This document shows positions 2,734 through 42,431 of a stretch of DNA of 64,000 bases, in pieces; the first letter of the stretch is position 1; every line of letters starts with the position of its first letter. The DNA lies in IMG/VR virus record IMGVR_UViG_3300037423_000600, positions 1-64,000 of that record; one strand, written 5' to 3'. The notes beneath the pieces are model-generated. The model was not told where the DNA came from, searched no databases, and saw nothing but the letters and a program-made list of their open reading frames with translations. The translations under genes were made by a program, and so were the position numbers. This DNA is from a virus.

Positions 2734-2756
2734 TCGTTGGGGCTTAGGCCCCTTAT

Positions 2757-2826
2757 GGGTGTGAATGGAAGTCTGGGGGCCAAAAGAAGTTACCGCGGAC
2801 AGGAGGTTCGATTCCTCCCACTCCCA
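2757..2826 (+). ncRNA. tRNA-like element without a pairable anticodon arm
   Basis: Acceptor-like GGGTGTG/CACTCCC, D-loop-like AGTCTGG, perfect T arm GGAGG-TTCGATT-CCTCC. Confidence 0.55.
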
Positions 2827-2908
2827 TCCTTGCCTAAAGGGTATCGGTGCTTTAACTACATAATCCTAGTTCAAAGGCAACTCACCGACACTCTTTAGGC
2901 AGGGATGG
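2824..2908 (+). ncRNA. Long RNA hairpin next to the tRNA-like element
   Basis: CCATCCTTGCCTAAAGGGTATCGGTG pairs with CACCGACACTCTTTAGGCAGGGATGG (26 bp, two G-U pairs, one mismatch), plus an inner stem. Confidence 0.55.
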
Positions 2909-2969
2909 AACCCCTCCCTAGCAACTACTATCGCGGCCTTACATATGTAGGTCAGCAACGAAAGGGAAG

Positions 2970-3713
2970 ATGAAAATGAGTGTTCAGGATTGGTTCTCGC
3001 AAGGTTATGAGAAGGTCGAGCAACGGGCGGCGGAAATCGATGAGGCGATGAGCCGAACGTACCTCCCGGATTACATCCTCAAAGAGGAGGATGGGGAGCA
3101 ACCTATGCGGTTTGTCATGGCTACGCCGATTACTTACTACGAGCACTTCCTCCAATCCATCAAGCGGTCCTTTACTTGTCCGGATGGTGGCGATTCCACA
3201 AAGGGCAACTGCCCGCTGTGCGCTTCCGGCAACAAGGCAAACTTCCGGGGTGCGTATCTGATTGCGGACCACCGTCATGAGGAGTGGACCAAGGATGGCA
3301 AAACCCAGAAGCGTCACAACACGCTGAAGGTTGCCAAGTTCGGGGTCAAGGTTCTCAAGTCGCTGGGCAAGCGGGAAGAGGCATTGAAGAAGAAGGGTAT
3401 GGCGGGCGGCCTGCTCGATGTGGACTTCGACGTTATGCGTACAGGCTCCGGCACCGACACCATGTATAACTTCACTCCGGTTGGCCGGAATGAAGAAATC
3501 CCGACTCCTCCGGTTCCTGAGAAGGACGCGAAGGAAGGGAAAGACTACCGGGCTCTCCTTATCGAAGCCATCAAGCCGAAAAGCCGCGAGGACTTGCTTA
3601 AGGTTCTCGGTGGAGGCGGCGGTTCCGCATCCGGTGGAAACTCCGGCGGCGGAGCGGCACGGAAGCCGATTGACCTTGGCGACGGTGACGAGGACGTAAT
3701 CAAGTTCAGCTAA
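2970..3713 (+). CDS. Single-stranded DNA-binding protein (T4 gp32-like)
   Basis: H..CPD..CPLC Zn site, RTGSGTDTMY motif, Gly-rich linker and acidic tail DGDEDVIKFS; directly upstream of the polymerase. Confidence 0.75.
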   Translation: MKMSVQDWFSQGYEKVEQRAAEIDEAMSRTYLPDYILKEEDGEQPMRFVMATPITYYEHFLQSIKRSFTCPDGGDSTKGNCPLCASGNKANFRGAYLIADHRHEEWTKDGKTQKRHNTLKVAKFGVKVLKSLGKREEALKKKGMAGGLLDVDFDVMRTGSGTDTMYNFTPVGRNEEIPTPPVPEKDAKEGKDYRALLIEAIKPKSREDLLKVLGGGGGSASGGNSGGGAARKPIDLGDGDEDVIKFS

Positions 3714-3730
3714 TCCACTTCATCATCCTA

Positions 3731-3766
3731 CTAAAGCCCCATTCGTTAACCCGGGTGGGGCTTTAG
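3731..3766 (+). terminator. Hairpin between SSB and polymerase (terminator or processing site)
   Basis: CTAAAGCCCCA...TGGGGCTTTAG inverted repeat. Confidence 0.5.
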
Positions 3767-3791
3767 ACTCATTTAAGGAGGCTTTTCGCTG

Positions 3792-6215
3792 ATGGCTAAG
3801 AAGAAGGGCGGCCCGAAGGTTAAATCGAAGTCGATGGAGGTACTTATCCCCTCAGATTTTGACTTAGTGGAATGGGCGGCATACTTAAAGCAACACGCTT
3901 CCACGACAAACATCACGTTCCTTGACCGCCCGCAGGAAGAATGGGCCAAGGACCCGAATATACCGCAGACCAAGGAACATTTTGAAGAAATGCTTCACCA
4001 CATCCTCAAATACGACAACATCATTTGTGACGTGGAGACTTCCGGCCTTTCGTTCGTGGACCCCGCCGTTCAGGTGTGCGGACACGTATTGGCGGCGGGA
4101 GGGAAATCTTTTTACGTTCCCATCCGGCACATCACGAATGAACCTCAACTCGATGTAGATTACGTAAACAAGATACTGGCGAACGAAATCTACATGAACC
4201 GCAATAAATTCACCACATGGCATAACGCCGCCTTTGACTACAACCAACTCCGGAAAGACGGTATTGATATGACGTTCCGCTTTAGGGAACGGCTTATTCA
4301 CGATACCCAGATTCAATATTGGCTAGTGGACGAGAACCAAAAGGACAACGAGACATACTACTTCGTCCAAAACGGGAAACCTGCTGTCGCGTCGAAATGG
4401 TCCGGCCTTTACAAAGGACACGCGGCCAAGGCTAAAGAGGCCGGGGCAGTAAAGCTAATGGGGTATTCCCTTAAGGTTCTCTCGCCGCTTCTCTTCGGCC
4501 TGCCCATGACCAAATTCGATGACCTGATGGAGCATATCGGCTTCCACCGCCTGCCTCTCTACTTCGGCGGGAAGTACGCCCGGTTGGACGGCTTCGCCAC
4601 GGAACTCCTCCACAACCATTCGTATCCCAAGCTGAAAGAGGAAAAGATTGTGGATGCTTACCATCACGTTGAAATGCCTTATGTGCGGGTGGTGGCAAAC
4701 ATGATGCGGCGGGGCTTCGGGATATCGGAGCGGGTGGTTCTCCGTATGCGGGAACGCTGTATGGAGGAAATCAACGAGATTGATATGCGGGTGCGGGACC
4801 TGACGGGCGGTATCGAAATCAACTGGAACTCCGGCCCGCAGGTCGCCAACCTATTGTTCAATACACTCAATTATCCGGTTTTAGCGACCACGGATACCGG
4901 GAAGCCCAAGACGGATGCGGAGACAATGGAACGGCTGGCTGAACTGGGGTACCCGCTTCCGAAACTCCTTTCTCGGCGGAACAAGCTGACCAAAACGGTC
5001 GGGACCTACTGTGACGGCTTCCTAAAGGAACTCGACGTAGACGGGCGGATTCACACTTCGTTATTCCAAACGGGCACCACTACGGGCCGCCTCTCTTCCG
5101 GCGAACCGAATCTCCAAAATCTGACGGCTTCCCCGATATTCAAGGATGACTTATCCCGGGATTATATGATTCATCTTCGTAAGCAAATCGGGGATATGGG
5201 CATTAACAAGCAGTTCGACTTCACGGTTCATTTCTGTGACGCGGACGGGGAGCCTTTAGGCATGGAGGACGGATGGGAGGAACAATGCGTCAAGGTGCAG
5301 GAACGTTGGTTCGTCCGCGACTTCTTTACGGAACTCGATTACCTCAACCCGCAGGATGTCGAATACCCGGAGGATATGGCTCCGTTTATCGTGGAGCATT
5401 GTAAGAAAACCAAGGCCCACGAAATGTATGGCACCATCGACGGCCGGAAGATTGAAGAGGAATTGTGCTACTCGGTGGCGGACTTTAACCAGATGGAACT
5501 CCGGATGATGGCCCACTACTCGAACGCGGACAGTATGATATCGGCCTTCGCCCGTGGAGAGGATACCCACAAACGGACGGCGGCGGACGTATACGAAGTG
5601 GATTACAGCAACGTCACCAAGCAACAACGGAAGGACGCGAAGGCGGTCAACTTCGGATTGATTTACGGGAAAACCTCTTTCGGCTTCGCGGTGGATTGGT
5701 ACGATTCGGAACCGGACTTCTGGGTGGATGTCGATTGGGGCTCCGGCCGCGCTCCGGCCAAGAAGTATCTGGAAAAGGCTCAGGGCTTTATCGACCGTTA
5801 TTTCCAAGTGCGGCCGGAGGTCAAGGAATGGATGGACCTGACCGAAGCACAGGTTAAGAAATACGGGTACGTGCGGACCATCACGGGGCGGAAGCGGAGA
5901 CTCCCCGATGCCTTTAGCATGATTAAGTCCGTTGCAAATAAGGCATCCCGGCAGGCGGGGAACACGAAGATTCAAGGCTCGTCGGCGGATTACATGAAGA
6001 TGGCGATGATTAAAATTGAGGACAAATTTGAGGATGATGGTACCTTTGCGATGCAACTGGTTCCGGTCCACGACGAAATTGTAACGGTCACCCTCTACCG
6101 GATTAAGGACCAAGTGGAAGCGACCAAGAAGGATATCATGGAAAACATCATCCCATTACGTTGCCCGATGCGTTCGGACCCTACGACTTGGTTCCGCTAC
6201 GGCTCCGCGAAATAA
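3792..6215 (+). CDS. polA: Family A DNA polymerase with 3'-5' exonuclease domain
   Basis: Exo DVETSG and HNAAFD; TGRLSSGEPNLQN; motif A ADFNQMELR; motif B RKDAKAVNFGLIYG; motif C VHDEI. Confidence 0.95.
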   Translation: MAKKKGGPKVKSKSMEVLIPSDFDLVEWAAYLKQHASTTNITFLDRPQEEWAKDPNIPQTKEHFEEMLHHILKYDNIICDVETSGLSFVDPAVQVCGHVLAAGGKSFYVPIRHITNEPQLDVDYVNKILANEIYMNRNKFTTWHNAAFDYNQLRKDGIDMTFRFRERLIHDTQIQYWLVDENQKDNETYYFVQNGKPAVASKWSGLYKGHAAKAKEAGAVKLMGYSLKVLSPLLFGLPMTKFDDLMEHIGFHRLPLYFGGKYARLDGFATELLHNHSYPKLKEEKIVDAYHHVEMPYVRVVANMMRRGFGISERVVLRMRERCMEEINEIDMRVRDLTGGIEINWNSGPQVANLLFNTLNYPVLATTDTGKPKTDAETMERLAELGYPLPKLLSRRNKLTKTVGTYCDGFLKELDVDGRIHTSLFQTGTTTGRLSSGEPNLQNLTASPIFKDDLSRDYMIHLRKQIGDMGINKQFDFTVHFCDADGEPLGMEDGWEEQCVKVQERWFVRDFFTELDYLNPQDVEYPEDMAPFIVEHCKKTKAHEMYGTIDGRKIEEELCYSVADFNQMELRMMAHYSNADSMISAFARGEDTHKRTAADVYEVDYSNVTKQQRKDAKAVNFGLIYGKTSFGFAVDWYDSEPDFWVDVDWGSGRAPAKKYLEKAQGFIDRYFQVRPEVKEWMDLTEAQVKKYGYVRTITGRKRRLPDAFSMIKSVANKASRQAGNTKIQGSSADYMKMAMIKIEDKFEDDGTFAMQLVPVHDEIVTVTLYRIKDQVEATKKDIMENIIPLRCPMRSDPTTWFRYGSAK

Positions 6216-17213: not shown

Positions 17214-17547
17214 GGACTATGGCATTAACCAAATTGCTTCCGACTTGGAGGAAGTCCTGACGGCTAAAGGGCACACGGACTTTATTCGTAACAAGGATGT
17301 GTATGCAATTTCGGCCCTTATCCATACGGAGGTTTCCGAGTATACGCAACTTTTTAAGAAGTACGGCTTGGCGGACTCCTTTAAGGAGGACCGTGCTATG
17401 GAGATTGCCGATATCATCTTTAGGGCTCTTAACCTTGCGCTCATGGAGAATATCGACATCGCGGCGGCCATTCGGAAGAAGATGGAGTTCAACCAGAACC
17501 GCCCGTATAAATTCGGAACACCGGAGGAGGGAAAACCGAATGTCTAA
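17206..17547 (+). CDS. MazG-like NTP pyrophosphohydrolase
   Basis: LIHTEVSE...EIADIIFR...KKMEFNQNRPYK. Confidence 0.8.
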   Translation: MSEDYGINQIASDLEEVLTAKGHTDFIRNKDVYAISALIHTEVSEYTQLFKKYGLADSFKEDRAMEIADIIFRALNLALMENIDIAAAIRKKMEFNQNRPYKFGTPEEGKPNV

Positions 17548-18280
17548 ATTAAGAACGGCTTTTGACTTTGACCCCGAACGATTGAAAATCATCGAGGTCT
17601 ACAACTCCATTCAAGGGGAGGGCATCGACATTGGTTCGGAGGTTATCTTTGTACGCACGAGTGGCTGTAATTTGTCTTGTGTTTGGTGCGACACAAAACA
17701 TAGCTGGACAGGCCAGCGCGGTGATTCCTTCACCCCCGGAGAACTTCTACGAAAAGTCATCGAAGAAACCAAAGGGGCCAAGTCGGTAATTATTACGGGC
17801 GGGGAACCGTTCGTTCAGCCGCCGGAGCCGCTGACGGAGTTTGTTATCTCCCTCAAGGCTTTAGGCTATCACGTCGCATGGGAAACTAACGGACTCCATG
17901 TGCCGGACGATACCCTAATTGAACTGACTGACCTCTTTACGGTAAGTCCTAAACTCCATTCCTCGGAGCAAATCGCATTTCCGGTTATGACCTTGGATAC
18001 GTGGGCGGCCCGGGCCGGGGCGGAAGGCAAGGTACAATTCAAGTTTGTTATCGGTAGCGAAGAGGATATGGCGGAAGCGGTGTATCTGATTACACACGCC
18101 CAAAACGTCTACCATACGGAGTCTCCCATCGTCTTTCAACCGGAAGAGTCCAAGGATAAAGAAATCTATGCGAAGCTTCCGGAAATGGCGGCAAGGCACC
18201 TTCGAGGGAAGGGCGATAATATTCTCAAGTATTATGTCCGCTATATCCCTCAAACCCATAAACACTACAAAATACGCTAA
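17540..18280 (+). CDS. queE: 7-carboxy-7-deazaguanine synthase (radical SAM)
   Basis: SIQGEG, FVRTSGCNLSCVWCDT, TGGEP, ETNG, VSPK, KFV, PQTHK. Confidence 0.95.
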   Translation: MSKLRTAFDFDPERLKIIEVYNSIQGEGIDIGSEVIFVRTSGCNLSCVWCDTKHSWTGQRGDSFTPGELLRKVIEETKGAKSVIITGGEPFVQPPEPLTEFVISLKALGYHVAWETNGLHVPDDTLIELTDLFTVSPKLHSSEQIAFPVMTLDTWAARAGAEGKVQFKFVIGSEEDMAEAVYLITHAQNVYHTESPIVFQPEESKDKEIYAKLPEMAARHLRGKGDNILKYYVRYIPQTHKHYKIR

Positions 18281-18294
18281 GGAGTGACTCTCTC

Positions 18295-18684
18295 ATGGAA
18301 ACAGTTGAAGAAAAAGTAGTACAGGAAAATATCGAGGCGGCAAATTCGGAACTTAACGCAGGTCAAGTTCCGGAGGAGATTCCGGTACCGGAGAAGAAAA
18401 CCCGAAACCGCCGGAAGAACCAACAACCCGAAGAAACCGTATCGGCGGAATCTGTAGAGAAGTTCGCTCATGCCTTTATGGTGTTGGTCCGTAACGACGG
18501 CACCTTTAGCATCGAGCCTGTCGGCCAACTGGTGGAAGCCCCACCGGAAGAAGGATATGTGTATGCTCCGGGTGCTAACGTTTACCGCACTCTCCTTCGG
18601 GATATTGTGGACAAGCTGGACCGGAAGATTATTGTGGATGAAGTTCGCCGTGCTCTGGCGGCAGGACTGGGAGGTAACATCTAA
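18295..18684 (+). CDS. Hypothetical protein
   Basis: AAGGAG RBS; lies inside the modification island. Confidence 0.65.
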   Translation: METVEEKVVQENIEAANSELNAGQVPEEIPVPEKKTRNRRKNQQPEETVSAESVEKFAHAFMVLVRNDGTFSIEPVGQLVEAPPEEGYVYAPGANVYRTLLRDIVDKLDRKIIVDEVRRALAAGLGGNI

Positions 18685-18935
18685 TGCGCGATAACCTTCG
18701 GATTAAACAAACTGATGCAACTCATTTTGAAATCCGCCGGACCATGACGGAAACCGTAAACCGTGCCAATATGGAGGACCGTAAACGCACTCTGGAGATG
18801 CAGATTGAAACCCTTACGGACCAATTGGATACGCTGAAAAATAATTTGGCGGCGGTCAACGATGCCCTGAAAAACGGCCTTGGTCAGACGGAGAAAAACG
18901 TCGAGGCTAAGGCGGTGGGCGAGGATGGAAAGTAA
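18684..18935 (+). CDS. Small coiled-coil protein
   Basis: Heptad-rich LEMQIETLTDQLDTLKNNL; GGAGG RBS. Confidence 0.6.
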   Translation: MRDNLRIKQTDATHFEIRRTMTETVNRANMEDRKRTLEMQIETLTDQLDTLKNNLAAVNDALKNGLGQTEKNVEAKAVGEDGK

Positions 18936-19503
18936 TGTAGACGGCTTGGAGTATTCCAAGGAGAATATTGAGTTCCACTTCCGGCAGATTATGATGTCCT
19001 TGGGATTGGATTTAACCGACCCTAGCCTTAAGGAGACTCCCGCTCGGGTGGCGAAAATGATGGTATACGAAACTTGTAGTGGCCTCTTTAGTGACCCGCC
19101 CAAAGTCACCACTTTTGAGTTTGAGGATGGAGCAAGTCGGGACTTAATCATCATTGAGGACATTAAGTTTTCCTCTATGTGTGAACATCATTTTGTTCCT
19201 TTCATCGGAAAGGTAACGGTGGCTTACCTCCCGAAAGACAAGTACATGGGCCTTTCTAAAGCGGCTCGGGTGGTGGATTACTTCGCGGCCCGGCCGCAGG
19301 TACAGGAACGACTCACGGCGCAGGTGGCCGACTTCTTAATGGACAAGCTGGACCCGAAAGGGGTTCTGGTTATGGTAACGGCCGAGCATATGTGCATGAG
19401 TACCCGGGGCGTAAAGAAACACGGCTCGAATACCATCACCACGGCCATTCGCGGGGAAATCGACAAACAGGAAGTCATTTCGTCCATACAACTTAAGAGA
19501 TAA
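18925..19503 (+). CDS. folE: GTP cyclohydrolase I
   Basis: ETPARVAK, SMCEHHFVPF.G, GLSK.AR, RPQVQERLT, AEHMCMSTRGV. Confidence 0.95.
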   Translation: MESNVDGLEYSKENIEFHFRQIMMSLGLDLTDPSLKETPARVAKMMVYETCSGLFSDPPKVTTFEFEDGASRDLIIIEDIKFSSMCEHHFVPFIGKVTVAYLPKDKYMGLSKAARVVDYFAARPQVQERLTAQVADFLMDKLDPKGVLVMVTAEHMCMSTRGVKKHGSNTITTAIRGEIDKQEVISSIQLKR

Positions 19504-19570
19504 CGACGAGGGACGCGAATACGGGCAAATACTGTCTAACTTCGCGTCCCTTTCTCATAGGAGGGATGTT

Positions 19571-19912
19571 ATGTTTACGTATTCGGCGGTGGTGACTCGG
19601 GTAGTGGATGGAGACACCTTTCATTGTAATATCGACCTCGGCTTTAGGATGGGCGTAAATGATATGGTTATTCGTATGGCCGATATCAACGCCCCGGAAA
19701 TGTCTACGGAGGCGGGACGGGTAGCAAAACAGTATTTGGTTTCCCGTATTGAGGGTAAGGAGATTATTCTCCGTACCTATAAACCGGACAAGTACGGGCG
19801 GTGGCTTGGTGTAGTATTCGTAGAGCCGGATAAAGGTTCTGTTAACGCGGAAATGGTGGCTAAAGGATTGGCCGTTCCTTATATGGTTAATAAGGAGGAT
19901 GGGGTCTTATGA
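19571..19912 (+). CDS. Thermonuclease (SNase-like)
   Basis: RVVDGDT, IR..DINAPE, DKYGRWLG, VN..MV..GLA. Confidence 0.9.
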   Translation: MFTYSAVVTRVVDGDTFHCNIDLGFRMGVNDMVIRMADINAPEMSTEAGRVAKQYLVSRIEGKEIILRTYKPDKYGRWLGVVFVEPDKGSVNAEMVAKGLAVPYMVNKEDGVL

Positions 19913-20268
19913 GTAAGCAAACGACCGGGGCGGTGGATATCGATGGGGTATTGGCTTCCTTGCTCGAATCCGGTAATTACCCTGAGGATTATAAGAAGAA
20001 AACGGTCATCAGCGGGGCGGTGGAGTCGCTAAAGACGCTCAGGGCTTTAGGTCACCGGATTGTTCTCTTTACCGCCCGATACGAGATTGACCGGGTAGTA
20101 ACCGAGAAATGGCTCCATGATAACGGCTTCGCCGGGCTCTACGATGAACTCATTATGGATAAACCCAAGTTCGATTACGTGATTGATGACCGGGCTATTC
20201 GGTTTGAAGGCTGGGCGGCGACCATCGACAAGGTGTTCCAACTTCATAAGTCGGGCAGGTGGTACTAA
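19909..20268 (+). CDS. Small HAD-superfamily phosphatase
   Basis: DIDGVL motif I, FTAR motif II, KP...IDD motifs III/IV. Confidence 0.85.
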   Translation: MSKQTTGAVDIDGVLASLLESGNYPEDYKKKTVISGAVESLKTLRALGHRIVLFTARYEIDRVVTEKWLHDNGFAGLYDELIMDKPKFDYVIDDRAIRFEGWAATIDKVFQLHKSGRWY

Positions 20269-20468
20269 TGAAAGAACCCATGAGAATTTCCACCCGGCTA
20301 CCCCTCCCCGCCTCTATCTGTGAACATGGATGCAAGCATATGGTGGAACTCCATATCGGAGCCAATCTCTTTCAAATGTGTGAGGTTGATGCTTTCCACC
20401 TTGGGCGCGGGCTGATGGATACGGTAACGGCGCGGGACAATGTGAAAATTTCTTTAGGAGGGAAATAA
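20268..20468 (+). CDS. Hypothetical protein
   Basis: TAATG-coupled ORF. Confidence 0.5.
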   Translation: MKEPMRISTRLPLPASICEHGCKHMVELHIGANLFQMCEVDAFHLGRGLMDTVTARDNVKISLGGK

Positions 20469-20469
20469 G

Positions 20470-20808
20470 ATGCCAGTGAATGTAGCGGTTAGTCAACCAA
20501 TGAAAATGCCTTACGGGATGGCACAGCTTATTGCTGTAACCACGGATTATGAGATTCAATATACGGTTCTTAAGCGCGGCGGGATTATCCCGAAGCAATA
20601 TAACAGCCTGATTGACCTCTTTTTCTACGTAGTGGCCGGGTACGGGAAATACACCGATAATGCCGGAACGACCTATGAAGTCCGGCCGGGCGACCGCTTC
20701 GTGGTTTTGTCGGGGGAGCAATATTCCCTTGAGGGGAGTCCGAATTACGACCTCACCCTTATTCAAACCTCCGGCGTAAACCCGGATAACGCTGTGGTGC
20801 TCGTATGA
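20470..20808 (+). CDS. Cupin-fold protein (possible sugar isomerase/epimerase)
   Basis: FFYVVAGYG...YEVRPGD.F.V..G..Y cupin pattern; the usual metal-binding His residues are not evident. Confidence 0.6.
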   Translation: MPVNVAVSQPMKMPYGMAQLIAVTTDYEIQYTVLKRGGIIPKQYNSLIDLFFYVVAGYGKYTDNAGTTYEVRPGDRFVVLSGEQYSLEGSPNYDLTLIQTSGVNPDNAVVLV

Positions 20809-21521
20809 GTACAAAATTCCAAGACAAGCACGTTCTGATGTTCTCCGGCGGGCTGGACTCCTATCTGGCGTACTTGGTTCTTCGGGATAACGACATCGAC
20901 CCGCAGTTGGTGTATGCAAACCTTGGACATCGGTACATGGAAACCGAATGGGCGGCGGCTCAGGCTTTAGCTATATCCCACGGGAAGGACCTGTTCACTG
21001 ACAACGCCCTCCGTCTGGGCGGCCGGGAAGAGGAAAATGCCTTTATCCCGAACCGGAATGGCTTCCTTGCTATGATAGGGGCCTTCTACGGTAACCATAT
21101 CTGGATGGCGATTATGGACGGGGAGCAGTCGTATCATGACTGTAAGGAAGGTACCTTTGTAGCAATGTCCATGGCTCTTACGGCTCTGTCCGGGAAGAGT
21201 ACGCTTGTGGATTCTCCGTTCTGGGATAAGACAAAGACGGAGGTAATCCGGGCGTTAGACCCGAAGTATTACGGGCTTTTGACTAAAACCCGGTCCTGTC
21301 ACCATCAGCATTTATTCCAAGGGGAACATTGTGGCGAATGTCCGGCCTGCTTCCGGCGGTGGGTTGCGTTCTCTCTGAATGGGATTAAGGATAAATACGT
21401 CCACCTGCCATGGAGTTCAGCGGTGGCGGCGGCGTATTACCGGAAAGCCTCCAAAGGCGAGTACGGCCCCAAACGGTCCCAAGAAATCCTCGACGCTTTA
21501 GCCCGGGAGGGAATCTTCTAA
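20805..21521 (+). CDS. queC: 7-cyano-7-deazaguanine synthase
   Basis: FSGGLDS PP-loop, IPNRN, YHDC, TKTEVI, TRSC, HCGECPACFRR. Confidence 0.9.
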   Translation: MSTKFQDKHVLMFSGGLDSYLAYLVLRDNDIDPQLVYANLGHRYMETEWAAAQALAISHGKDLFTDNALRLGGREEENAFIPNRNGFLAMIGAFYGNHIWMAIMDGEQSYHDCKEGTFVAMSMALTALSGKSTLVDSPFWDKTKTEVIRALDPKYYGLLTKTRSCHHQHLFQGEHCGECPACFRRWVAFSLNGIKDKYVHLPWSSAVAAAYYRKASKGEYGPKRSQEILDALAREGIF

Positions 21522-21958
21522 TGATTATTTTCACGAACGGAGTCTTTGACCTTCTTCATGTAGGTCATCTTGATTTTCTCCGGAAAATCTACGGAGAAAA
21601 GTTTAACTACCCGGACCCGAAGATTGTCGTGGGTATCAACTCGGATGAATCGGTTCGTCGGCTAAAGGGACCTTCCCGCCCGATTATTCCCCAAAACCAC
21701 CGGAAAATGATGCTTGAGGCCCTCTCCATTGTCGATAAGGTCTACATATTTGAAGAAGATACGGCGGTAGAACTTATCCGTAAGCTCAGTCCGGCGGTTT
21801 ACTTTAAGGGTTGGGATTACTTCGGGAAACCGAAATGCCCGGAGCAGGAGTTTGTGGAATCCTACGGCGGAGAGGTTCGCTTGGCGATGCCCCCACTCCC
21901 GTCTTTAGGAGTCATGCATACCACGGACATTATCAATAAAATTAAAGCAGGTGGTTAA
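21521..21958 (+). CDS. HldE/RfaE domain II-like nucleotidyltransferase
   Basis: FTNGVFDLLHVGH, VGINSDESVRRLKG..RPI, FEEDT, KG.DY, TTDIINKI. Confidence 0.9.
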   Translation: MIIFTNGVFDLLHVGHLDFLRKIYGEKFNYPDPKIVVGINSDESVRRLKGPSRPIIPQNHRKMMLEALSIVDKVYIFEEDTAVELIRKLSPAVYFKGWDYFGKPKCPEQEFVESYGGEVRLAMPPLPSLGVMHTTDIINKIKAGG

Positions 21959-21959
21959 T

Positions 21960-22676
21960 ATGTCGAAGCCTCAATGGACGATTGCCGGAGACTGTATTAT
22001 AGATTGGGTGATTCATAATGGAAAAGTTACCCCCACGGCAGGAGGGGCGGGGAACATTGTACGAGGTTTGCTTCATCTTGGGCACAATGTCCGTTACCTC
22101 ACTGTTTACAATCCTATGCTGTATCCCCTTAATGCTGTCCTTCCGGTACACGGGGATTCACTCACTGACTTCTCTCAGCGTAACGTGTTTGTTCGCAATT
22201 ATGATGGCAATATATTTCACAGGTATCGGGAAAATGTTCGCTCTAAGGTATTCGACATTAAAGATGCCTTGGCCGTTATCTGCCATGAAGATTCGGTGGT
22301 TCGCCGCTTTGACGCAATTTATGCCGATGTACGTGACCCTAGAGTTCGTGGTACGTGTCAGTTTCTCCGGATGAGTTCTTCGGACCCATGGGAGGACATC
22401 ATGCGGGGGGTTAATTGGAAGATGGCGGTGGTCACCTATAAAGACCATATCCGTGTCTACAATAATTGGGGCGAACCTACCGTTACCATCGAGTTCCCTT
22501 CGGTGGTGGCGGTGGATGATATCGGGGCGGGGGACACCTTCGATGTTGGCTTCTTGGATTGGTTCTTGACTCCCGAGAATGAAGGAAAGTCCGCCTATGA
22601 CGGCTTTAGACACGCGGTTACCTTGGCACAAGAAAAGGTACAACAGATTGGAGTGTTCCTACATGGCAACTGTTAA
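21960..22676 (+). CDS. PfkB-family sugar kinase (HldE/RfaE domain I-like)
   Basis: GD..ID, GGAGNI...L..LG, DDIGAGDTF. Confidence 0.8.
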   Translation: MSKPQWTIAGDCIIDWVIHNGKVTPTAGGAGNIVRGLLHLGHNVRYLTVYNPMLYPLNAVLPVHGDSLTDFSQRNVFVRNYDGNIFHRYRENVRSKVFDIKDALAVICHEDSVVRRFDAIYADVRDPRVRGTCQFLRMSSSDPWEDIMRGVNWKMAVVTYKDHIRVYNNWGEPTVTIEFPSVVAVDDIGAGDTFDVGFLDWFLTPENEGKSAYDGFRHAVTLAQEKVQQIGVFLHGNC

Positions 22677-23646
22677 TGTTCCTTTCGAAGGTTCTAGAGA
22701 TTACATGACGCTTGGACTCCGTATGTTTGCCCCGGGGCTTGGGGATTTGGTACTTACCATCCCGCCGCTGTTTAATCTTAAAGCTAGGGGCATCATCCAC
22801 CATATTGTTCTGTTCGTATTTAATGAAGGACAGGCCGCGTTAGCTAAATCCTTCGATTTCATCGATACGGTTCAGATTGTGGATTTTGACTCTGATTGCC
22901 GGGCTCAAATGTTCCCCGGGCATTTCTATATTGATATGGCGGAACACCCGCTGGAGAAAATCTGGTGGGGCTCCCCCGAGTATCTGGAGAAGCATGGCAA
23001 GACTCCGGTGAAAAATATCATCGAGCAGATTCTTGGTGGGCAAGGCTTTCCGGAAGTTAACCCGCAACCCCGGAGACGGGGAGCCTATCCTTATGAAGGG
23101 GAACTCTCCAATGCGGTTCTCTTGGCTCCCGGCGGCCGCCGCCGAACGAAACTCCTGCCTGATGAACACTGGCTCACTTTAGCGGAGCATATTAAGCATC
23201 TGGGCTACGATGTTTACCTCATTGGGGACAAACATCATAAGGGGTCGGAGCAACTCCTTAGATTGGAAGCCAAGGGCCTTAAACATTACGACAAGGCATG
23301 GGATTTCGGGCGGATTTCCGGGGTTCAGGCCATCATCGAGTACATCCGGCAGGCTAAAGCGGTGGTGTCCATTGACAACGGCATCTATCATATTGCGAGT
23401 CTGATGGAGAAGCCTACCCTTGGATTCTTCGGCCCGATGCCTTCGTGGTTATGGGGCGGGGTCGGTTCCAAGACGGTCAATATGGACACTGGATGCGGCA
23501 TTAACTGTACATCCATTCCGCTGGATTGGGATTGTGTCGGCCACGCCTGCATGACTACGGACTTCAATCCGTTCTTGGCATTACGCATCTTTAGGGAGGA
23601 TATCGAGCCATGGATTACGGACTCCTCACGTTCACCCCTTACATAG
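22663..23646 (+). CDS. GT9-like (heptosyltransferase-like) glycosyltransferase
   Basis: GLGDLVLTIP, LAPGG...K, VSIDNGIYHIA....KPTLGFFGP, C-terminal Cys cluster. Confidence 0.8.
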   Translation: MATVNVPFEGSRDYMTLGLRMFAPGLGDLVLTIPPLFNLKARGIIHHIVLFVFNEGQAALAKSFDFIDTVQIVDFDSDCRAQMFPGHFYIDMAEHPLEKIWWGSPEYLEKHGKTPVKNIIEQILGGQGFPEVNPQPRRRGAYPYEGELSNAVLLAPGGRRRTKLLPDEHWLTLAEHIKHLGYDVYLIGDKHHKGSEQLLRLEAKGLKHYDKAWDFGRISGVQAIIEYIRQAKAVVSIDNGIYHIASLMEKPTLGFFGPMPSWLWGGVGSKTVNMDTGCGINCTSIPLDWDCVGHACMTTDFNPFLALRIFREDIEPWITDSSRSPLT

Positions 23647-24689
23647 GGGATACGTTCGTCGCTACGGCCTTGGCCCGGAAGATATACAAGCTGTCCGGGC
23701 AGGAGGTCGCCGTCGCTCAAATCGGGGATGAAAATGTGTTTACCTCCTACTTTGCGGATGACACAATGTTGGCTACCTACAGCGGTCCGTACACCGAGTT
23801 CCTAAAGGAGGGTTCCACCTTTAGTCCGGAGGCTCCGCTGTCCAAGCTGTTCTTCAAGGGGCAGTTCAATTATTTCTATTCCGAGACTACAGAGTATAAG
23901 GCCAAGATTGAATCCTTGGTGGCGGAAGTTCTACAGGGGTTTACGAAGGACGAAGTTATCCACACTTTCCACTATACGTATCCACATGCGGCCCTCGGGC
24001 GGGAAGCCCTCCGGCGGGGGCTCACCGTGAGAGGATACGTACTGGATGAAGGCAATAACCTGATGATGATTAATCACCGGGGCGAAAAGGTCAATGCGGT
24101 TATCTGGACTGACGATTTCATCGGTACCCGGCTGGCCCGGCAGTTTCTCGGGACGGACTTGACCATTGACGATTTCAAGGTAAACCTTTCCCCGAGCCAC
24201 ATTGTCGAGAATAAAGTCACCATCCTCCCGGCCACCCGGGGCGGCGGGTTGCCTTCGGTAGGGCATTGGACTTTAGACGCGGAGTATCTGGTACGGGAAG
24301 GCTATAACGTTGAAGTGGCATGGCACAGCCAAGAGGAACTGGATATGTCCCCGTTCATGGCGGCCGGGGCCAATGTAAGCCTGTTCAGCAGTATGGAGGC
24401 TTTCCTCTTCCACATTACCTCCTCCGAGTTCATCATCTGTAATGACTCCTCCGCCTTTCACTTGGCTTGGTACTTCGGCGTTCCGGCTATTGTGAAGCTA
24501 AAGGGTGGGTTCAATTACGAGTGGACTCCGGAATGGGTGGCGGAGCGGAACGATTACCTCTTCTTCCCACCCACTATGATGTACGAGGAAGAGTATCTTA
24601 AGACCCTATCCCATATGGTGAAGGACCTGCGGTTCTCCATCCGGCGGGGTCCGAGTCGAAGGAGGGCGAGGTTCTTTGGCGAGATGTAA
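23610..24689 (+). CDS. Second, more divergent GT9-like glycosyltransferase
   Basis: YIGDTFVATAL and ICNDSSAFHLAWYFGVP match GT9 N- and C-terminal motifs. Confidence 0.7.
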   Translation: MDYGLLTFTPYIGDTFVATALARKIYKLSGQEVAVAQIGDENVFTSYFADDTMLATYSGPYTEFLKEGSTFSPEAPLSKLFFKGQFNYFYSETTEYKAKIESLVAEVLQGFTKDEVIHTFHYTYPHAALGREALRRGLTVRGYVLDEGNNLMMINHRGEKVNAVIWTDDFIGTRLARQFLGTDLTIDDFKVNLSPSHIVENKVTILPATRGGGLPSVGHWTLDAEYLVREGYNVEVAWHSQEELDMSPFMAAGANVSLFSSMEAFLFHITSSEFIICNDSSAFHLAWYFGVPAIVKLKGGFNYEWTPEWVAERNDYLFFPPTMMYEEEYLKTLSHMVKDLRFSIRRGPSRRRARFFGEM

Positions 24690-25038
24690 ACGAATGACCG
24701 TGACGGCTATCGGCATCGACGCTTTAGGACGGTCGGCGTACGCCCGGAATTATAACCGGACGGAGTGTACATCGGAGCCGGGAAAATGTGGCTGTATCCA
24801 TGCGGAGACGGCCCTACTGGAACACATGCCTCGGCCGACGCTGGTTTTAGTATCCCACTCCCCCTGTCTGGACTGTGCTATCCGCTTGGTCCGGGCGGGA
24901 GTGCTAAAGGTGGGCTTTTACTATCAGTACCGCTTGATGGATGGCCTCAATTACCTCAAGGAAAATGGCGTGACTACGTATGCCCTCACGGAGGCTCAGT
25001 GGGCTGACGCTCAAAAATATCTTGTCGAGGAGGAGTAG
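24676..25038 (+). CDS. dCMP/cytidine deaminase-family protein
   Basis: HAE and SPCLDCA Zn motifs; Y....G...L...GV. Confidence 0.85.
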   Translation: MARCKRMTVTAIGIDALGRSAYARNYNRTECTSEPGKCGCIHAETALLEHMPRPTLVLVSHSPCLDCAIRLVRAGVLKVGFYYQYRLMDGLNYLKENGVTTYALTEAQWADAQKYLVEEE

Positions 25039-25041
25039 GCC

Positions 25042-26025
25042 ATGCGTATCTACTTGGCAGGTGGCGAGTCCATGTTAAACATCTTGAAGAACAACGGGGC
25101 GGAACACGTACTGGTTTCCTACTACTACCTCCGGGAGAAAGGGGAAAAGACGGTAGAGCATCTGCTGAACTCCTTCCCCGATGTGTTCTTGGACTCCGGG
25201 GCCTTTACCTTGAACGTCCAAATTGCTAAAGAGGGAATCTCATGGGAGGAGGCCCAGCGTGACCCGAGGATTAAAAACTATGTGGAGGACTATGCTCGGT
25301 TTTTGGACAAGTGGGGCCACCGCTTTAGTATCCATGCGGAAATCGATGTGGGGCCGGAGGAGCAGAAAACAAGACAACGGGAGTTCTTGGAACAATACTC
25401 CGATAGAATCCTCCCGGTTATTCACCCCTCCGACTATCCAGAATATCAGCACTACCTATGTCAGAACTATGACTACGTGGCCCTCGGCGGGGTCGGTCAA
25501 GCGCGGTCGCTGGAGGCTATCAAGGCGTATGTCACTCGGAAAATCCAGTTGGCTAAACGGTACGGCACCCGGTACCACGGCTTCGCCATCACGATTATCG
25601 AAATGATGCGGGCCCTTCCCTTCTACTCCTGTGACTCAACCTCTTGGCTGATGGGTGGTAAGTACGGGATGACGTTTTGGTTCGACGGCCACCGCCTGCG
25701 GGCTTACGACAAATTCTCCAAGAACGTCCGGCGGCGGTTCAAGCGAGAGTGTATGGAGCTTGGAGTCGATTGGGAAAAGTTCATGGCGGATAAGGCCCCA
25801 GCGGTGAACAAGTTCAATTTACTCCAATGGATTCAGTATCAGAAGTTCATGAATACTAAAGGGGCTCAGGGCATCGGCCAGTACAAGGAACAACAGGAGT
25901 CGTTCTTTAGGGAACACCCGAACTATCGGGAAATCTATATCGATGAATACCGGAGGGATGAAAGTGAAGATACCGACTTGGATGCCGGAGCGGTTGGAAA
26001 TACGGACGGAGGACTCGGAACATGA
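25042..26025 (+). CDS. dpdA: TGT-fold base-exchange enzyme, DpdA-like
   Basis: FLDSGAFT, PVIH, YVALGG, YHGFA, SCDSTSW; clustered with folE/queE/queC. Confidence 0.75.
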   Translation: MRIYLAGGESMLNILKNNGAEHVLVSYYYLREKGEKTVEHLLNSFPDVFLDSGAFTLNVQIAKEGISWEEAQRDPRIKNYVEDYARFLDKWGHRFSIHAEIDVGPEEQKTRQREFLEQYSDRILPVIHPSDYPEYQHYLCQNYDYVALGGVGQARSLEAIKAYVTRKIQLAKRYGTRYHGFAITIIEMMRALPFYSCDSTSWLMGGKYGMTFWFDGHRLRAYDKFSKNVRRRFKRECMELGVDWEKFMADKAPAVNKFNLLQWIQYQKFMNTKGAQGIGQYKEQQESFFREHPNYREIYIDEYRRDESEDTDLDAGAVGNTDGGLGT

Positions 26026-32672: not shown

Positions 32673-32785
32673 GATTACATAAGGAGGTATCCGGTACGAT
32701 ACAAATTCTTTATCTCTAGTTGCCCTCCCGGGCCTATACTTATTACATGGGCCCGGGATGGCCCACCACACAGGAGGGATGAAGA

Positions 32786-37628: not shown

Positions 37629-37785
37629 GGGGTGGGGCTCCGGCCCCGCTTTTTATTTTCGGCGGGCGGGCACGAACACGTCACGATTCCGTTTCCTCAA
37701 ACAACAGGGTCTTAAGAATCCCTTTAGGCTTTATACTATAAATAGGCCCAAGGGAAAGGGCACTAAAACATTGGAGGTTTTACAT

Positions 37786-38022
37786 ATGAATTTGTCACTG
37801 GTGGTTCAACATTTGGTAGCACAAGAGAAGGCCAACGGCTCCGATATGGCGGCGGAGGCTTTAGGGAAATTGCTTGAGGAAACTTCGATTGTCTATTACG
37901 AGTACATGACCGAAGAAGAAATCGCCCAATACATTTTTGATGTCTACTTCGATGACCGCATCACTCATTTGCAGAATGGACTTAGCCGGACGGCGGGCGA
38001 GGTTACGATTGTCAGAAACTAA
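37786..38022 (+). CDS. Small acidic early protein
   Basis: TATACT, leader hairpin, TTGGAGG; terminator GCGGGGC-TTCG-GCTCCGC-TTTT. Confidence 0.65.
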   Translation: MNLSLVVQHLVAQEKANGSDMAAEALGKLLEETSIVYYEYMTEEEIAQYIFDVYFDDRITHLQNGLSRTAGEVTIVRN

Positions 38023-38175
38023 CGGCAGGCGGGGCTTCGGCTCCGCTTTTGCTTTACCCTAAACGGCAAGAGTAAGTAACGAACTCGCCCCAAGTTGTTT
38101 ACTCAAGTTGTCGGGCGGGGTCTATAATATAACTATAAGGGGTTCGGGACTCCTTAAACTTATTATTTTGGAGGA

Positions 38176-38457
38176 ATGGAAATGGATAACATGGAGGAAA
38201 CATTGGGATTGGTACTCACTTATTTTAAATCACTTCAATCTATCTTGGAATTGGCGGAAGGTAAAAAGGATTGGGAATTGGTCCAAACGGTTAGGGCTTC
38301 CTTGGAGGATATGGAGGTTGACTTGGGTTGGGATTACGGGGAATCGGATAAAACAGGCATCCAACAATGGCAAGGCGGAATGGACCGGGCGGAAGGGAAT
38401 TTCGGACATATTACGGAAATTCAAAACTTATCTCAAAAATTAAAGGCCGGGGAATAA
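38176..38457 (+). CDS. Small acidic early protein; gene almost free of isolated G
   Basis: TATAAT, leader hairpin, TTGGAGG, terminator; one singleton G (38320). Confidence 0.75.
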   Translation: MEMDNMEETLGLVLTYFKSLQSILELAEGKKDWELVQTVRASLEDMEVDLGWDYGESDKTGIQQWQGGMDRAEGNFGHITEIQNLSQKLKAGE

Positions 38458-38604
38458 TCCCGGTCTTTTTCTTTTCCTTCTATTATATAAGACACGACCT
38501 CGCCGGGCGGGGACAGGATTCTACAAATTACACAAGCCTTTAGGGCTATGGTATTATTTAAACATGGGCAGGGAACCCATAAACAACACATTGGAGGTAT
38601 TACG

Positions 38605-38877
38605 ATGCAGGGAACTATGGACAAATTGATTGAGGACCAACGCGAGTATGGAAAGGGTCTTATGACACGGGAGGAAAAATTGAGTCCCAATCCGATTCAA
38701 ACTAAATACAACGGGCGGAAGGTTTGGGTGGACGGCTACGGCTGGGGAACCATCAAAGGCGGATATCTTAACGACAGGCATCATATTTTCATCTTCTCGG
38801 CTTTTCATATCCACTTCGCTTCAGGTATCAAAACTACCATCTACGCCGCAAACATTCGGAAAATGGCTCGGGCTTAA
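38605..38877 (+). CDS. Hypothetical early protein
   Basis: TGGTATTAT, leader hairpin ATGGG-CAGGGAA-CCCAT, TTGGAGG. Confidence 0.65.
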   Translation: MQGTMDKLIEDQREYGKGLMTREEKLSPNPIQTKYNGRKVWVDGYGWGTIKGGYLNDRHHIFIFSAFHIHFASGIKTTIYAANIRKMARA

Positions 38878-39048: not shown

Positions 39049-39127
39049 GGGCTTTTTTCTTACACCGAACCAAGTAATTTTCACGACACCTTTCCATAGA
39101 TTATACGCTCGGGGTATATTATAACTA

Positions 39128-39232
39128 TCCCGGGAGGGCTTTACCAAAGGCTCTTATCGGGAACCTCCAATACATCGGCCCGGCAGGGATTCCCGACATT
39201 AACCGATTCGCGGTTACTGTACCCGCCGGGCC
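39128..39232 (+). ncRNA. Candidate structured small RNA
   Basis: Downstream of TATATTATAAC; stems TCCCG/CGGGA, GGCCCGGC/GCCGGGCC and TAACCG/CGGTTA; no ORF with an RBS. Confidence 0.45.
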
Positions 39233-39587
39233 ACAATTTTGTGCCAAATTCATAGACATCTAGTATCCCTCCCTTGCCCTCCGATTTTTGTATCCCCCAG
39301 AAGAAGCCCTAGTAGCTATACATGCCTCGTTCTCAAAAGATTTCACGAATGTAAAACTTTACAAGACTAAAGGATTCAAACCGTAAAACCTATATTATAC
39401 CATAAAACAGGCCCTTCGGTCAAGGAGTCTAGGCAATAAATTTTTTCTTTCACGGACAGGCAAGGCAATAAAAAACATTATTCAAAAAGGACTTCTCAAA
39501 AACCCTTATAAGGCATATAATAGGTAATAGGTAAGGCGGGCCGGGCGGGAATCCACCCCTTACACTAACCTATTGGAGGGAATACAA

Positions 39588-40430
39588 ATGGCAAAAACAA
39601 ACGGCAAGGCAAACGGCGGGAAAAAGGTAACACCAAAAAAGGTAACACCAAAAAAGGTAACACTCCCGGAGGCTCTCAAATTACCGGAAACGGCGGGCCC
39701 GGAGGCAAACGGGGAATACTTCTACTTAACGGATACGGAGGCAAAAACGGCGGGCGGGACGGCTTTAGGCACACCGGAGGACTTGGCTAAGGCTATCCAA
39801 CAAACGGAGGAGGAAAAGGAAAAGGCTATCAAATTTATTTACGGGCCGGGCGGCCAAACATGGTCCATTCTTCCAATCCTCTTGGACCGGAAGGTTAATC
39901 CTTTCTTGGATACCCACTTCCCCATTACGGCCGGGCGGGTAACACAACAAACACTGGAGGAATGGAAAAAGGCTAACGGCACCATTACCATCATACCTAT
40001 CCAAGGCGGGGAATGGACATTTTACACGGTGGCAATACTTCCGGCCAAACAAACCACAATCAAACCTTGGGAATTAAAATGGGGACGGGAAACAGGCAAT
40101 TTCCTTCAATACACGGAATACAAGGAGGCGGAAAAAGGCATCATGGTAACACCCCAACAATACCTCATTACTAACATTACAACTAACCGGGGAAAGGCTA
40201 TCAATCAGGCTAAGGCATTGGGTAAGGTATTCAAATTGGATACCTCCACGGTGGAGGATAAGGCTAAGGTAACTTACACCATCACACCGGAAGGAAAAAT
40301 CCTACAGGCTAACAAAAATAACGGATTGGACAAAAAGGAATATAACTCTATCTCGGATATTATCGGACGGCAGGCAACCAAACATTATACATGGAATAAC
40401 TTGGTCAAGGCTTATACAGGCCGGGCTTAA
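39588..40430 (+). CDS. Hypothetical (putative immediate-early) protein; gene has no isolated G
   Basis: TATAAT near 39516, leader hairpin, TTGGAGG RBS, N-terminal KKVTP repeats, strong terminator. Confidence 0.85.
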   Translation: MAKTNGKANGGKKVTPKKVTPKKVTLPEALKLPETAGPEANGEYFYLTDTEAKTAGGTALGTPEDLAKAIQQTEEEKEKAIKFIYGPGGQTWSILPILLDRKVNPFLDTHFPITAGRVTQQTLEEWKKANGTITIIPIQGGEWTFYTVAILPAKQTTIKPWELKWGRETGNFLQYTEYKEAEKGIMVTPQQYLITNITTNRGKAINQAKALGKVFKLDTSTVEDKAKVTYTITPEGKILQANKNNGLDKKEYNSISDIIGRQATKHYTWNNLVKAYTGRA

Positions 40431-40433
40431 TCC

Positions 40434-40470
40434 AAAAAAAGGAAATTCTCTTCGGGGAATTTCCTTTTTT
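40434..40470 (+). terminator. Rho-independent terminator (bidirectional-type)
   Basis: AAAAAAAGGAAATTCTC-TTCG-GGGAATTTCCTTTTTT. Confidence 0.85.
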
Positions 40471-40667
40471 CTATTTCCACCCACCCACCTTCAAATTTTT
40501 GGAAATTCTACCCGTGCAAGTATATACTCATATGCGAAAAGGATATTCACGAAACCCTCGCTTCTGACACTTCCAGACCTTGTAAAACAATGGACGAGCT
40601 GGGGCGGAGGGGCTATAATTATAAGTGATATAACTCTTATATGAGGCGCAAGGGGAGGGCAACCACC

Positions 40668-42431
40668 ATGACTATAGAACTGGATGAATCAAAACGTAAG
40701 AAGCCCAAACGAGTATCTACCAAGCTCAAGCATAACAAAAGGGAACTGCGAGAGAAGCAGGGAACCACTCAAGATGAGGGAACTGCTTTAGACCAAAGGG
40801 AACGTGACTTAAATGAGATAGCTGACGAGAGGGCTAGGGAACTGGCGGAATCCGTAAAGGCCAAGACGACCTCTTTAGCCAAACGGGATGAACAGCTATC
40901 CGATTTGGTCGAGAAGATACTGTTGTACTGTGAAACCCAAGCGGACACGAAGTTACACGAATACCAAAAGGTATTTGCGCGGCGCGTCATCGAGTGTTTG
41001 GTGACGAATAGCGGGGATGAACTCACGGCCCTATTTTCTCGTCAGTCGGGTAAGACGGAGACGCTCGGGGTGGTGATTCCGGGGTGTATGGTATTACTGC
41101 CTCTGCTGGCGAAGATGATTCCGGATATGTACGAATTGAAGATGTATGCTAAAGGGTTCTGGGTGGGGATTTTTGCTCCTTCTAATGAGCAGGCGTATAC
41201 GGCGTTTACGCGGGTGCGGGAGAAAATACGGCACGGGAATGCGAAGGCGATTATGAATGACCCGGAGATTGATACGGATTTTGAGAATGAGAAAGGGAAC
41301 CCGATGCTGTTGACGAATGGGTCGTTGTGTCGGATGCAGTCGGCGGCGAAGCAATCCCAGATTGAGTCGAAGTCCTATCACATGGTACTGATTGACGAAT
41401 GTCAGGATGTCGATAATACGAAAATCAAGAAATCGATTCACCCGATGTTGGCGGCGTATAACGGACTCATTATTAAAATCGGGACCTCGAATACGAAGAA
41501 GTCGGACTTCTATGATGCGATACGGCGGAATATCCGGCAGGAGCAGAATTACGGGGCGAAGCAGAATCACTTCCAATATGACTATAAGACGGTGCAGAAA
41601 TACAATCCAAAATATAAGGCTTACATAGAGAAAGAGATTACGCGGCTTGGGTTTGATTCGGACGAATTTCGGATGGCGTATCGGCTCCACTTCATTCTGG
41701 ACCGGGGGATGTTTATTACGCAGGAGGATTTTGATGATATCCTAGTCTCTCCGGTGTTGAAGCACAAGACCGAGGAAATGTCGATGCCGTGTGCGGTCGG
41801 GATTGACGTAGCGAAGAGTGGGGACTCAACGGTGGTGACGGTTTTAGGGGTCGATTGGAGCAACAAGTATAAGAATGAGGAAACCGGGGAAGAAATCCCG
41901 ATGAAGTATGTGCTGAACTGGCTGGAGTTACAGGATGAGAAGCACGAGGCGCAGTTCTGGCAAATTGTGGATTTCCTTAAAAACTATAACGTCCATACGA
42001 TCTTCGTAGATTCGACGGGGATGGGGGACCCGGTGGCGGACCGTTTTGCGCATTACTATTCCGGTCAGTGTCACGTCGAAGGGTACCAGTTTACCCGGCC
42101 GTCGAAATCGACCATGTGGAAGTCGTTGAAACAGGAGATTGACGGGAACCGCCTAAAGGTGCCGGGCCATCCCCGGGCGCAACGGTTACGGCCCTTTATG
42201 AAATTCCGGTCGCAAATGCTCGACTTGGAGAAGGATTACGTGGGGCAATACATGGTCTGTCAGCATCCGGATGTCAAAGGGGCACACGATGACTATTGCG
42301 ACTCTTTAGGGCTGGCGAATTTGGCGGCGATGTCGAACTTTATGCCGGAAGTCGAGGAACATGACAGTCCATTTTATCCGCATAGCCGGACCTCGGTGGA
42401 GGAAAAACTGTTCGGGCGACGGAGGGCGTAG
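40668..42431 (+). CDS. terL: Terminase large subunit
   Basis: Walker A SRQSGKT, Walker B LIDECQ, nuclease GIDVAK, VDSTG.GDPV, HDDYCDSL. Confidence 0.92.
   Translation: MTIELDESKRKKPKRVSTKLKHNKRELREKQGTTQDEGTALDQRERDLNEIADERARELAESVKAKTTSLAKRDEQLSDLVEKILLYCETQADTKLHEYQKVFARRVIECLVTNSGDELTALFSRQSGKTETLGVVIPGCMVLLPLLAKMIPDMYELKMYAKGFWVGIFAPSNEQAYTAFTRVREKIRHGNAKAIMNDPEIDTDFENEKGNPMLLTNGSLCRMQSAAKQSQIESKSYHMVLIDECQDVDNTKIKKSIHPMLAAYNGLIIKIGTSNTKKSDFYDAIRRNIRQEQNYGAKQNHFQYDYKTVQKYNPKYKAYIEKEITRLGFDSDEFRMAYRLHFILDRGMFITQEDFDDILVSPVLKHKTEEMSMPCAVGIDVAKSGDSTVVTVLGVDWSNKYKNEETGEEIPMKYVLNWLELQDEKHEAQFWQIVDFLKNYNVHTIFVDSTGMGDPVADRFAHYYSGQCHVEGYQFTRPSKSTMWKSLKQEIDGNRLKVPGHPRAQRLRPFMKFRSQMLDLEKDYVGQYMVCQHPDVKGAHDDYCDSLGLANLAAMSNFMPEVEEHDSPFYPHSRTSVEEKLFGRRRA

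Follow-up and report, generated by a model that had tools for sequence, protein, structure and literature searches.

The window analyzed here, the first 64 kb of a viral contig of 105,101 bp, contains a short transcription unit (unit 1) placed immediately before the gene for the large terminase (TerL). The contig ends at 1–127 and 104975–105101 overlap exactly over 127 bp, indicating a circular assembly with a true length of about 104,974 bp. The phage is uncultured, and the one sequencing run listed with this sequence is of soil-metagenome DNA, its likely source; no RNA run is listed. The features discussed below are as follows.

17297–26025 (+): 7-deazaguanine/sugar island with genes for QueE-like, FolE, SNase, QueC, GT9, CDA-like deaminase and DpdA-like TGT proteins
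38111–38490 (+): unit 2, obeying the same rule as unit 1 with one lone G, at 38320; -10 element at 38123–38128, 5' hairpin, ORF P0002 at 38176–38457 and terminator at 38442–38468
39394–39423 (−): divergent near-consensus sigma-A promoter, TTGACC-18-TATAAT with TG, abutting the left edge of the block
39428–40513 (+): block without isolated G, with 109 G runs, each of at least two residues
39493–39521 (+): sigma-A-type promoter of unit 1, TTCTCA-17-TATAAT (10/12), with a -35 hexamer lacking the G of TTGACA
39528–39587 (+): leader containing the Shine–Dalgarno (SD) sequence GGAGGG and a GC-rich hairpin predicted near the 5' end (-14.8 kcal/mol for the first 73 nt)
39588–40430 (+): 280-aa ORF P0001, founder of a rare phage family
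40440–40471 (+): intrinsic terminator with a 16-bp stem (-18.6 kcal/mol) and a T tract
40474–40565 (+): non-coding element conserved in four phages, between unit 1 and the TerL promoter
40641–42431 (+): TerL

Canonical sigma-A promoters are few in the genome and cluster at 39.1–40.6 kb. The promoter of unit 1 is compatible with early expression without proving it. The divergent unit at 39118–39423 (−), which has a leader of about 125 nt and an ORF of about 45 aa, is driven by the genome's best sigma-A promoter. Neither tRNA genes nor Rfam families at or above the gathering threshold are found in the region. The conserved non-coding element has the consensus CCACCTTCAAA ... GGTAcTTACT ... CGAAACCcTCGCTTCTGA, and its counterparts lie approximately at L001:11165-11290, L003:4440-4560 and L010:880-1000; this element may act as a site for packaging or as a promoter specific to the phage.

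The P0001 gene, with its own promoter and terminator, is directly upstream of TerL, i.e., in the position of a small-terminase gene, and the portal gene begins at 44590. P0001 matches no family in Pfam or PHROG, and hence no TerS family. Its N-terminal region is disordered and rich in Lys, Thr and Pro with KKVTP repeats, a composition which suggests that this tail may bind nucleic acids, and its core is an alpha/beta domain modeled by AlphaFold2 with pLDDT >90 for most of residues 90–240. Foldseek detects no match to this fold in PDB or BFVD (E > 0.01), the best Z score from VIA is 3.0, and ESM Atlas gives nothing usable.

A strand-specific ban on isolated G

Within the block, the 244 G residues of the + strand form 109 runs (88 of length 2, 16 of length 3 and 5 of length 4), none of which is single. 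The nearest isolated Gs on either side are 39427 and 40514, leaving a gap of 1087 bp, whereas the next two by length on the + strand of the 105-kb genome are only 210 and 171 bp, both within 38110–38491, and all the rest are 88 bp or shorter. Single runs account for 11194 of the 18695 G runs genome-wide (0.60), and the probability of finding 0/109 by chance is about 0.4^109, or about 1e-43. For C, 139 of 187 runs in the block are single, which is normal, and the ban is thus strand-specific. It comprises all nine HGH words (H, any base other than G) on one strand, including non-palindromic words such as AGA and TGT. No additional banned word or flanking-base rule is found inside the blocks, where GG runs are bordered by A, C or T.

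The ban is enforced within the coding sequence. When synonymous codons are shuffled within the 280-aa gene, 71 lone Gs are expected and 0 are observed (z = -12.5). Arg is encoded only by CGG and Ser only by TCN, Cys is absent, the stop codon is TAA, and no G-starting codon for Ala, Val, Asp or Glu is preceded by a codon without a terminal G. TGA is missing from all frames of the block, and GATC and GAATTC are both absent, whereas GGCC (n = 7) and CCGG (n = 12) persist. G is less abundant in the block than in the genome (22.5% vs 27%) and A is more abundant (35% vs 27%). A first-pass annotation made from the window alone had reported the interval with its flanking singletons, its coverage of promoter, leader, gene and terminator, its codon details and the abundance of isolated C; all of these hold on recounting, and the codon-shuffled control that it proposed gives the deficit above. 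A literature search found no published description of a lone-G rule.

Among the 163 ORFs, only two are outliers in the fraction of single G runs (0/94 and 2/41); one neighbor is intermediate (0.35) and the remainder range from 0.41 to 0.97. In unit 2, the ban starts 13 nt before the -10 element and stops at the terminator. Its product P0002 is an acidic orphan of 93 aa with no homologue among 5.8 billion proteins. In unit 1, the ban already holds from about 100 nt before the predicted transcription start; taking three phages together, the DNA upstream of the predicted starts contains 11 GG-type runs and no lone G, and the -35 hexamers of all rule-obeying promoters lack the G of TTGACA. The divergent unit next to the block is purged of neither lone G nor lone C. 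Intergenic DNA overall has a normal lone-G fraction of 0.58.

Near unit 2, the ORF at 38548–38877 and that at L001:9155-9451 encode homologous proteins of 90–98 aa (61% identical) with intermediate lone-G depletion (15/43 and 10/35 runs single, respectively). Also, eight promoter–leader segments contain 55 G runs, none of them single: 32723–32780, 37717–37787 and 38537–38603 in the window, and 82046–82106, 82227–82278, 88514–88563, 90591–90650 and 92982–93037 in the rest of the genome. A systematic test for a general lack of lone G in promoter–leader regions gives no significant difference (0.54 vs 0.61, p = 0.19, with SD sequences and the two full units left out).

Conservation of the ban in related phages

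Three other metagenomic phages (G002, G003 and L010) allow comparison at the DNA level, and in all of them a rule-obeying gene is followed by TerL. In G003 (TerL 81% and P0001 homologue 44% identical), a 1263-bp stretch free of lone G covers the homologue and an extra small ORF. In G002 (TerL 63% identical), a 1235-bp stretch lies upstream of TerL and a second stretch of 503 bp covers an unrelated ORF of 129 aa. The gene of L010 has two lone Gs in about 700 nt. Thus, the ban in the four loci holds despite protein identities of 33–44%, and in all six units of the four phages it is on the sense strand. RNA folding predicts that the four lone-G exceptions in these relatives are paired (0.71–1.00 vs a mean of about 0.6), and G003 has one lone G located in a terminator stem. 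In L010, TerL is seemingly interrupted (L010:1129-3913), with an N-terminal piece at 1129–1446, an inserted 266-aa ORF at 1496–2296 and a C-terminal piece at 2570–3913; a homing element or an intron might account for the insert.

At the protein level, three P0001 homologues are present in the set of 5.8 billion proteins, and a profile search of 1.84 billion proteins yields 20 representatives of the family. P0001 evolves far faster than the products of its neighbor genes. The ban leaves a footprint in these proteins: Cys is absent, Met is always followed by Val, Ala, Asp, Glu or Gly, and Val, Ala, Asp or Glu never follows Phe, Ile, Tyr, His, Asn, Asp or Cys. Of the 20 representatives, 17 bear this footprint; P0001, P0003–P0015, P0017 and P0018 have 0–1 violations each where 12–20 are expected, P0019 and P0020 obey partly, and P0016 disobeys. 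The ban is maintained in a family whose members are 25–50% identical and come from independent metagenomes. No cultured phage with this family is found by tblastn with P0004, P0016 and P0010 or by blastn of the region, and no further relatives are found in metagenome contigs, genome contigs or viral contigs (the last with P0016 and P0007 as queries). Because such a footprint can be recognized from proteins alone, it provides a sequence-only finder for genes of this kind.

The small ORFs which obey the rule are all acidic and are not homologous to one another, and therefore the rule marks an expression class of units rather than one single protein. As the ban survives at 33–44% protein identity, leaves a protein footprint and is obeyed by unrelated acidic ORFs, the comparisons show that strong selection preserves the pattern throughout a phage lineage. 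Down to the choice of amino acids, a whole transcription unit avoids a degenerate three-letter word on one strand. Selection this strong points to a molecular reader of isolated G in the infected cell.

The putative guanine-modification island and its relatives

The island encodes a putative pathway for guanine modification. The DpdA-like TGT at 25042–26025 matches phrog_887 (E 3.4e-46), which identifies it as a DpdA gene, and tblastn detects DpdA genes in BCD7, BRock and CAjan. Genes for preQ0 synthesis are represented by FolE (E 1.7e-61), a QueC domain and a radical-SAM QueE-like protein. QueD was not identified in the island, where the candidate ORF at 18295–18684 matches nothing. The island is a candidate for the reader or writer of the lone-G rule. 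Published DpdA motifs are GA and GGC for CAjan (PMC7544227) and GA for iggy (PMC10484667).

The first-pass annotation had proposed comparing related phages with and without the island, and the outcome agrees with a link so far as very few genomes allow. G003 has both the ban and the full island, with a DpdA 92% identical to that of the present phage and both GT9-like genes. G001, a genome of 106.8 kb with a TerL 60% identical, has diverged QueE and QueC and a DpdA-like gene that is diverged and split, and shows no match to FolE, to either GT9-like gene or to the heptose-isomerase-like gene; G001 lacks the P0001 family, and nowhere in its 106.8 kb is there a block devoid of lone G or of lone C. 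The two pieces of the DpdA-like gene in G001 (C1:104403-106157; L008 and L009) are about 870 bp apart, which would reflect either a split gene or one with an insertion. A GCC-free stretch in G001 (0 observed vs 8.7 expected) lies inside ordinary genes and was judged non-significant.

BCD7, a cultured Bacillus phage, carries DpdA and preQ0 genes and has no lone-G-free block. Its genome includes a 2.6-kb zone of small genes on the minus strand (NC_019515.1 91195-93793; L018:45196-47794) in which GGY occurs once on the coding strand where about 31 are expected, compared with 35 on the opposite strand. Counted on the + strand of the record, this zone has ACC 0 (17.5 expected), GCC 1 (14 expected), GGT 26 and GGC 9.

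Palindromic words are also strongly avoided in these genomes. In the present phage, GATC occurs 19 times vs 414 expected, GAATTC 0 vs 27, GCCGGC 0 vs 46 and TGGCCA 0 vs 25; in G001, GATC is 0 vs 398 and GGCC 0 vs 129; and in BCD7, GGCC is 0 vs 21 and CGCG 7 vs 109. In all three genomes, this avoidance is all-or-none and palindromes without G or C are spared; it does not separate lone-G sites from GG sites.

Candidate readers of isolated G

It is somewhat probable that a new recognition rule, 'G without a G neighbor', is read in infected soil Bacillales and that phages answer it with immediate-early genes freed of lone G, proteins included. The reader in this case would be either a new specificity of DpdA or a G-directed enzyme acting on single-stranded nucleic acid. 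The explanation ranked first, which is held tentatively and falls a little short of probable, is that the purged units are a 'stealth' early cassette without targets, linked to the DpdA-type guanine system that the phage itself encodes. It is placed first because the ban and a G-specific, neighbor-dependent enzyme share one phage, and a coincidence of the two is unlikely. Purifying selection would clear any G without a G neighbor from the sense strand of two units, each self-contained and driven by sigma-A, and a purged unit, as displaced non-template DNA or as mRNA, would offer no substrate to an enzyme acting on isolated G. The likeliest enzyme would be the phage DpdA-type guanine transglycosylase, together with its preQ0 and sugar-transfer genes. 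If DpdA recognizes a G by its lack of G neighbors, about 46% of the G in the genome would be open to exchange, and nearly half of the phage guanines might become sugar-bearing 7-deazaguanine. The purged units would then be the sole stretches whose sense strand stays plain DNA, possibly enabling host RNA polymerase to start unaided on the incoming modified genome; alternatively, the strand that early transcription exposes would present nothing to modification sensors.

Several lines of evidence support a role for DpdA as the reader. The ban is absolute and G-specific, and the same genome encodes a context-dependent G-exchange system. G003 combines island and ban, whereas G001 lacks the full island, the family and the block. 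The block includes untranscribed promoter DNA, with -35 hexamers lacking the G of TTGACA, and the few canonical sigma-A promoters are clustered at unit 1. BCD7 has a GGY-free zone on its coding strand, and GGC is a known motif of CAjan DpdA (PMC7544227). Other observations argue against DpdA. Modification of lone G on both strands would leave the unpurged template strand heavily modified. Lone-G palindromes are avoided genome-wide, and BCD7 avoids GGCC, a word that contains GGC; purged words thus need not be protected, modified words, and the near absence of GATC and GAATTC argues against blanket protection of lone G. Neighboring early-looking units are unpurged, and one of these has the best sigma-A promoter. 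The base-pairing predicted for the exceptions and the lone G in the terminator stem of G003 fit an RNA-level reader better. Finally, the correlation with the island depends on very few independent genomes.

Such an RNA-level reader is a possible, if rather doubtful, alternative: an enzyme which attacks single-stranded G flanked by non-G residues in RNA, as a host defense, a housekeeping activity or a phage shut-off function, would spare early transcripts without such sites, and these would survive to be translated, as do MazF-resistant mRNAs without ACA. In six of six units the ban affects the sense strand, and its extent roughly matches that of the transcripts, especially in unit 2; the 5' hairpin, strong SD sequence and strong terminator suggest transcripts made to last; and the fast-evolving, orphan, acidic products resemble anti-defense proteins. 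In addition to the predicted pairing of the four exceptions, Bacillus subtilis RNase Y prefers U-U-G/A, with G preceded by U (PMC11780869); however, this effect of G at position -1 is modest and too weak for an absolute ban. The literature search found no RNA enzyme specific for G but not GG. RNase T1-type enzymes and DarT1 act also within GG, and DarT1 was rejected as the reader for this reason (PMC11543638). The extension of the unit 1 ban to about 100 nt upstream of the predicted start is not explained by attack on mRNA, and co-occurrence with the G-exchange island would be a coincidence.

The first-pass annotation had placed a bulky adduct on lone C (or lone G) in the template strand, where it would stop host RNA polymerase working without help; this gene, supposedly the first to be expressed, would have been cleared of such sites, and its product might enable transcription of the modified genome. 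The template strand indeed has no lone C and the island includes a CDA-like deaminase, but the island is a guanine pathway and no cytosine-modifying gene set is found; a guanine adduct would hit about 139 lone Gs on the template strand of this very gene, as the purged strand is the non-template one. That annotation is supported in part: the pattern is real, strand-specific and as long as the whole unit, the phage encodes a context-dependent, G-directed base-exchange system, and the promoter fits early expression. An effect through template adducts is very unlikely. Clustering of G for structural ends, such as an R-loop or G-quadruplex on the non-template strand or RNA in replication priming or RNA stabilization, would account for the confinement of G to runs spaced by about 10 nt on the non-template strand. 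This is improbable, because G is below the genome average rather than dense, 81% of the runs are just GG, clustering needs no absolute ban on single G and unrelated small genes obey the same rule. Purging of restriction sites from the first-entering DNA, in the style of T5 first-step transfer, had been judged less likely in the first-pass annotation and is given very little probability here as well: despite extreme palindrome avoidance in the genome, the lack of GATC and GAATTC in the block and the adjacent packaging genes, restriction alone fails to explain the pattern. The purged word is not a restriction recognition site missing from both strands, since the ban affects one strand, lone C is normal, AGA and TGT are banned, GGCC and CCGG remain and G-starting sites are still possible where G is preceded by another G. 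A mutational footprint, e.g., hypermutation of lone G to A on the sense strand, or an assembly or synthetic artefact, would fit the A-rich and G-poor composition, but it has scarcely any probability: the ORF is intact, conserved and confidently modeled, the rule persists at 25–50% identity in independent metagenomes, and highly expressed structural genes are unaffected. The ban in the relatives, the protein footprint and the AlphaFold2 model largely refute it.

Known systems resemble the lone-G rule in part. Phage DpdA systems share a G-specific, neighbor-dependent enzyme with the present case, in which a DpdA homologue and preQ0 genes are encoded and the banned word concerns G and its neighbors. 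They differ in that none of the published motifs is defined by an absent flanking G and no phage in the literature is reported to purge its own motif from some of its genes; also, the ban here affects one strand, and the island adds GT9 and sugar genes. The first-step-transfer region of T5 lacks EcoRI sites and the leading end of T7 is likewise restriction-site-free first-entering DNA. As in those phages, targets are purged where the DNA would have to work before counter-measures exist, and sites are heavily avoided elsewhere; unlike them, the purged class here consists of degenerate, non-palindromic trinucleotides on one strand, enforced through amino-acid choice. Sequence-specific RNA cleavage of the MazF type and interferase-resistant, ACA-less mRNAs (reviewed in PMC7781912; PMC5408214) offer a parallel in which the coding sequence adapts so that an entire transcript has no copy of a 3-nt target, but no nuclease of lone-G specificity is known, and the present pattern is natural, conserved family-wide and inclusive of promoter DNA. 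END nucleases, a modification-dependent defense, sense hypermodified phage DNA early in infection (PMC12191111) and would supply a reason for leaving part of a modified genome unmodified; however, their target is double-stranded DNA whichever strand is modified, and a single cut outside the unmodified part would still kill the phage.

If the reader is the phage guanine-exchange enzyme, the banned word would reveal enzyme specificity from genomic letters alone, so that DpdA motifs become readable from genomes, and modified phages would have to leave parts of their DNA plain. If it is instead a host enzyme directed at RNA or single-stranded DNA, a new specificity of defense or decay would exist in Firmicutes. 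BCD7, being cultured and having the GGY-free zone, provides an experimental entry point.
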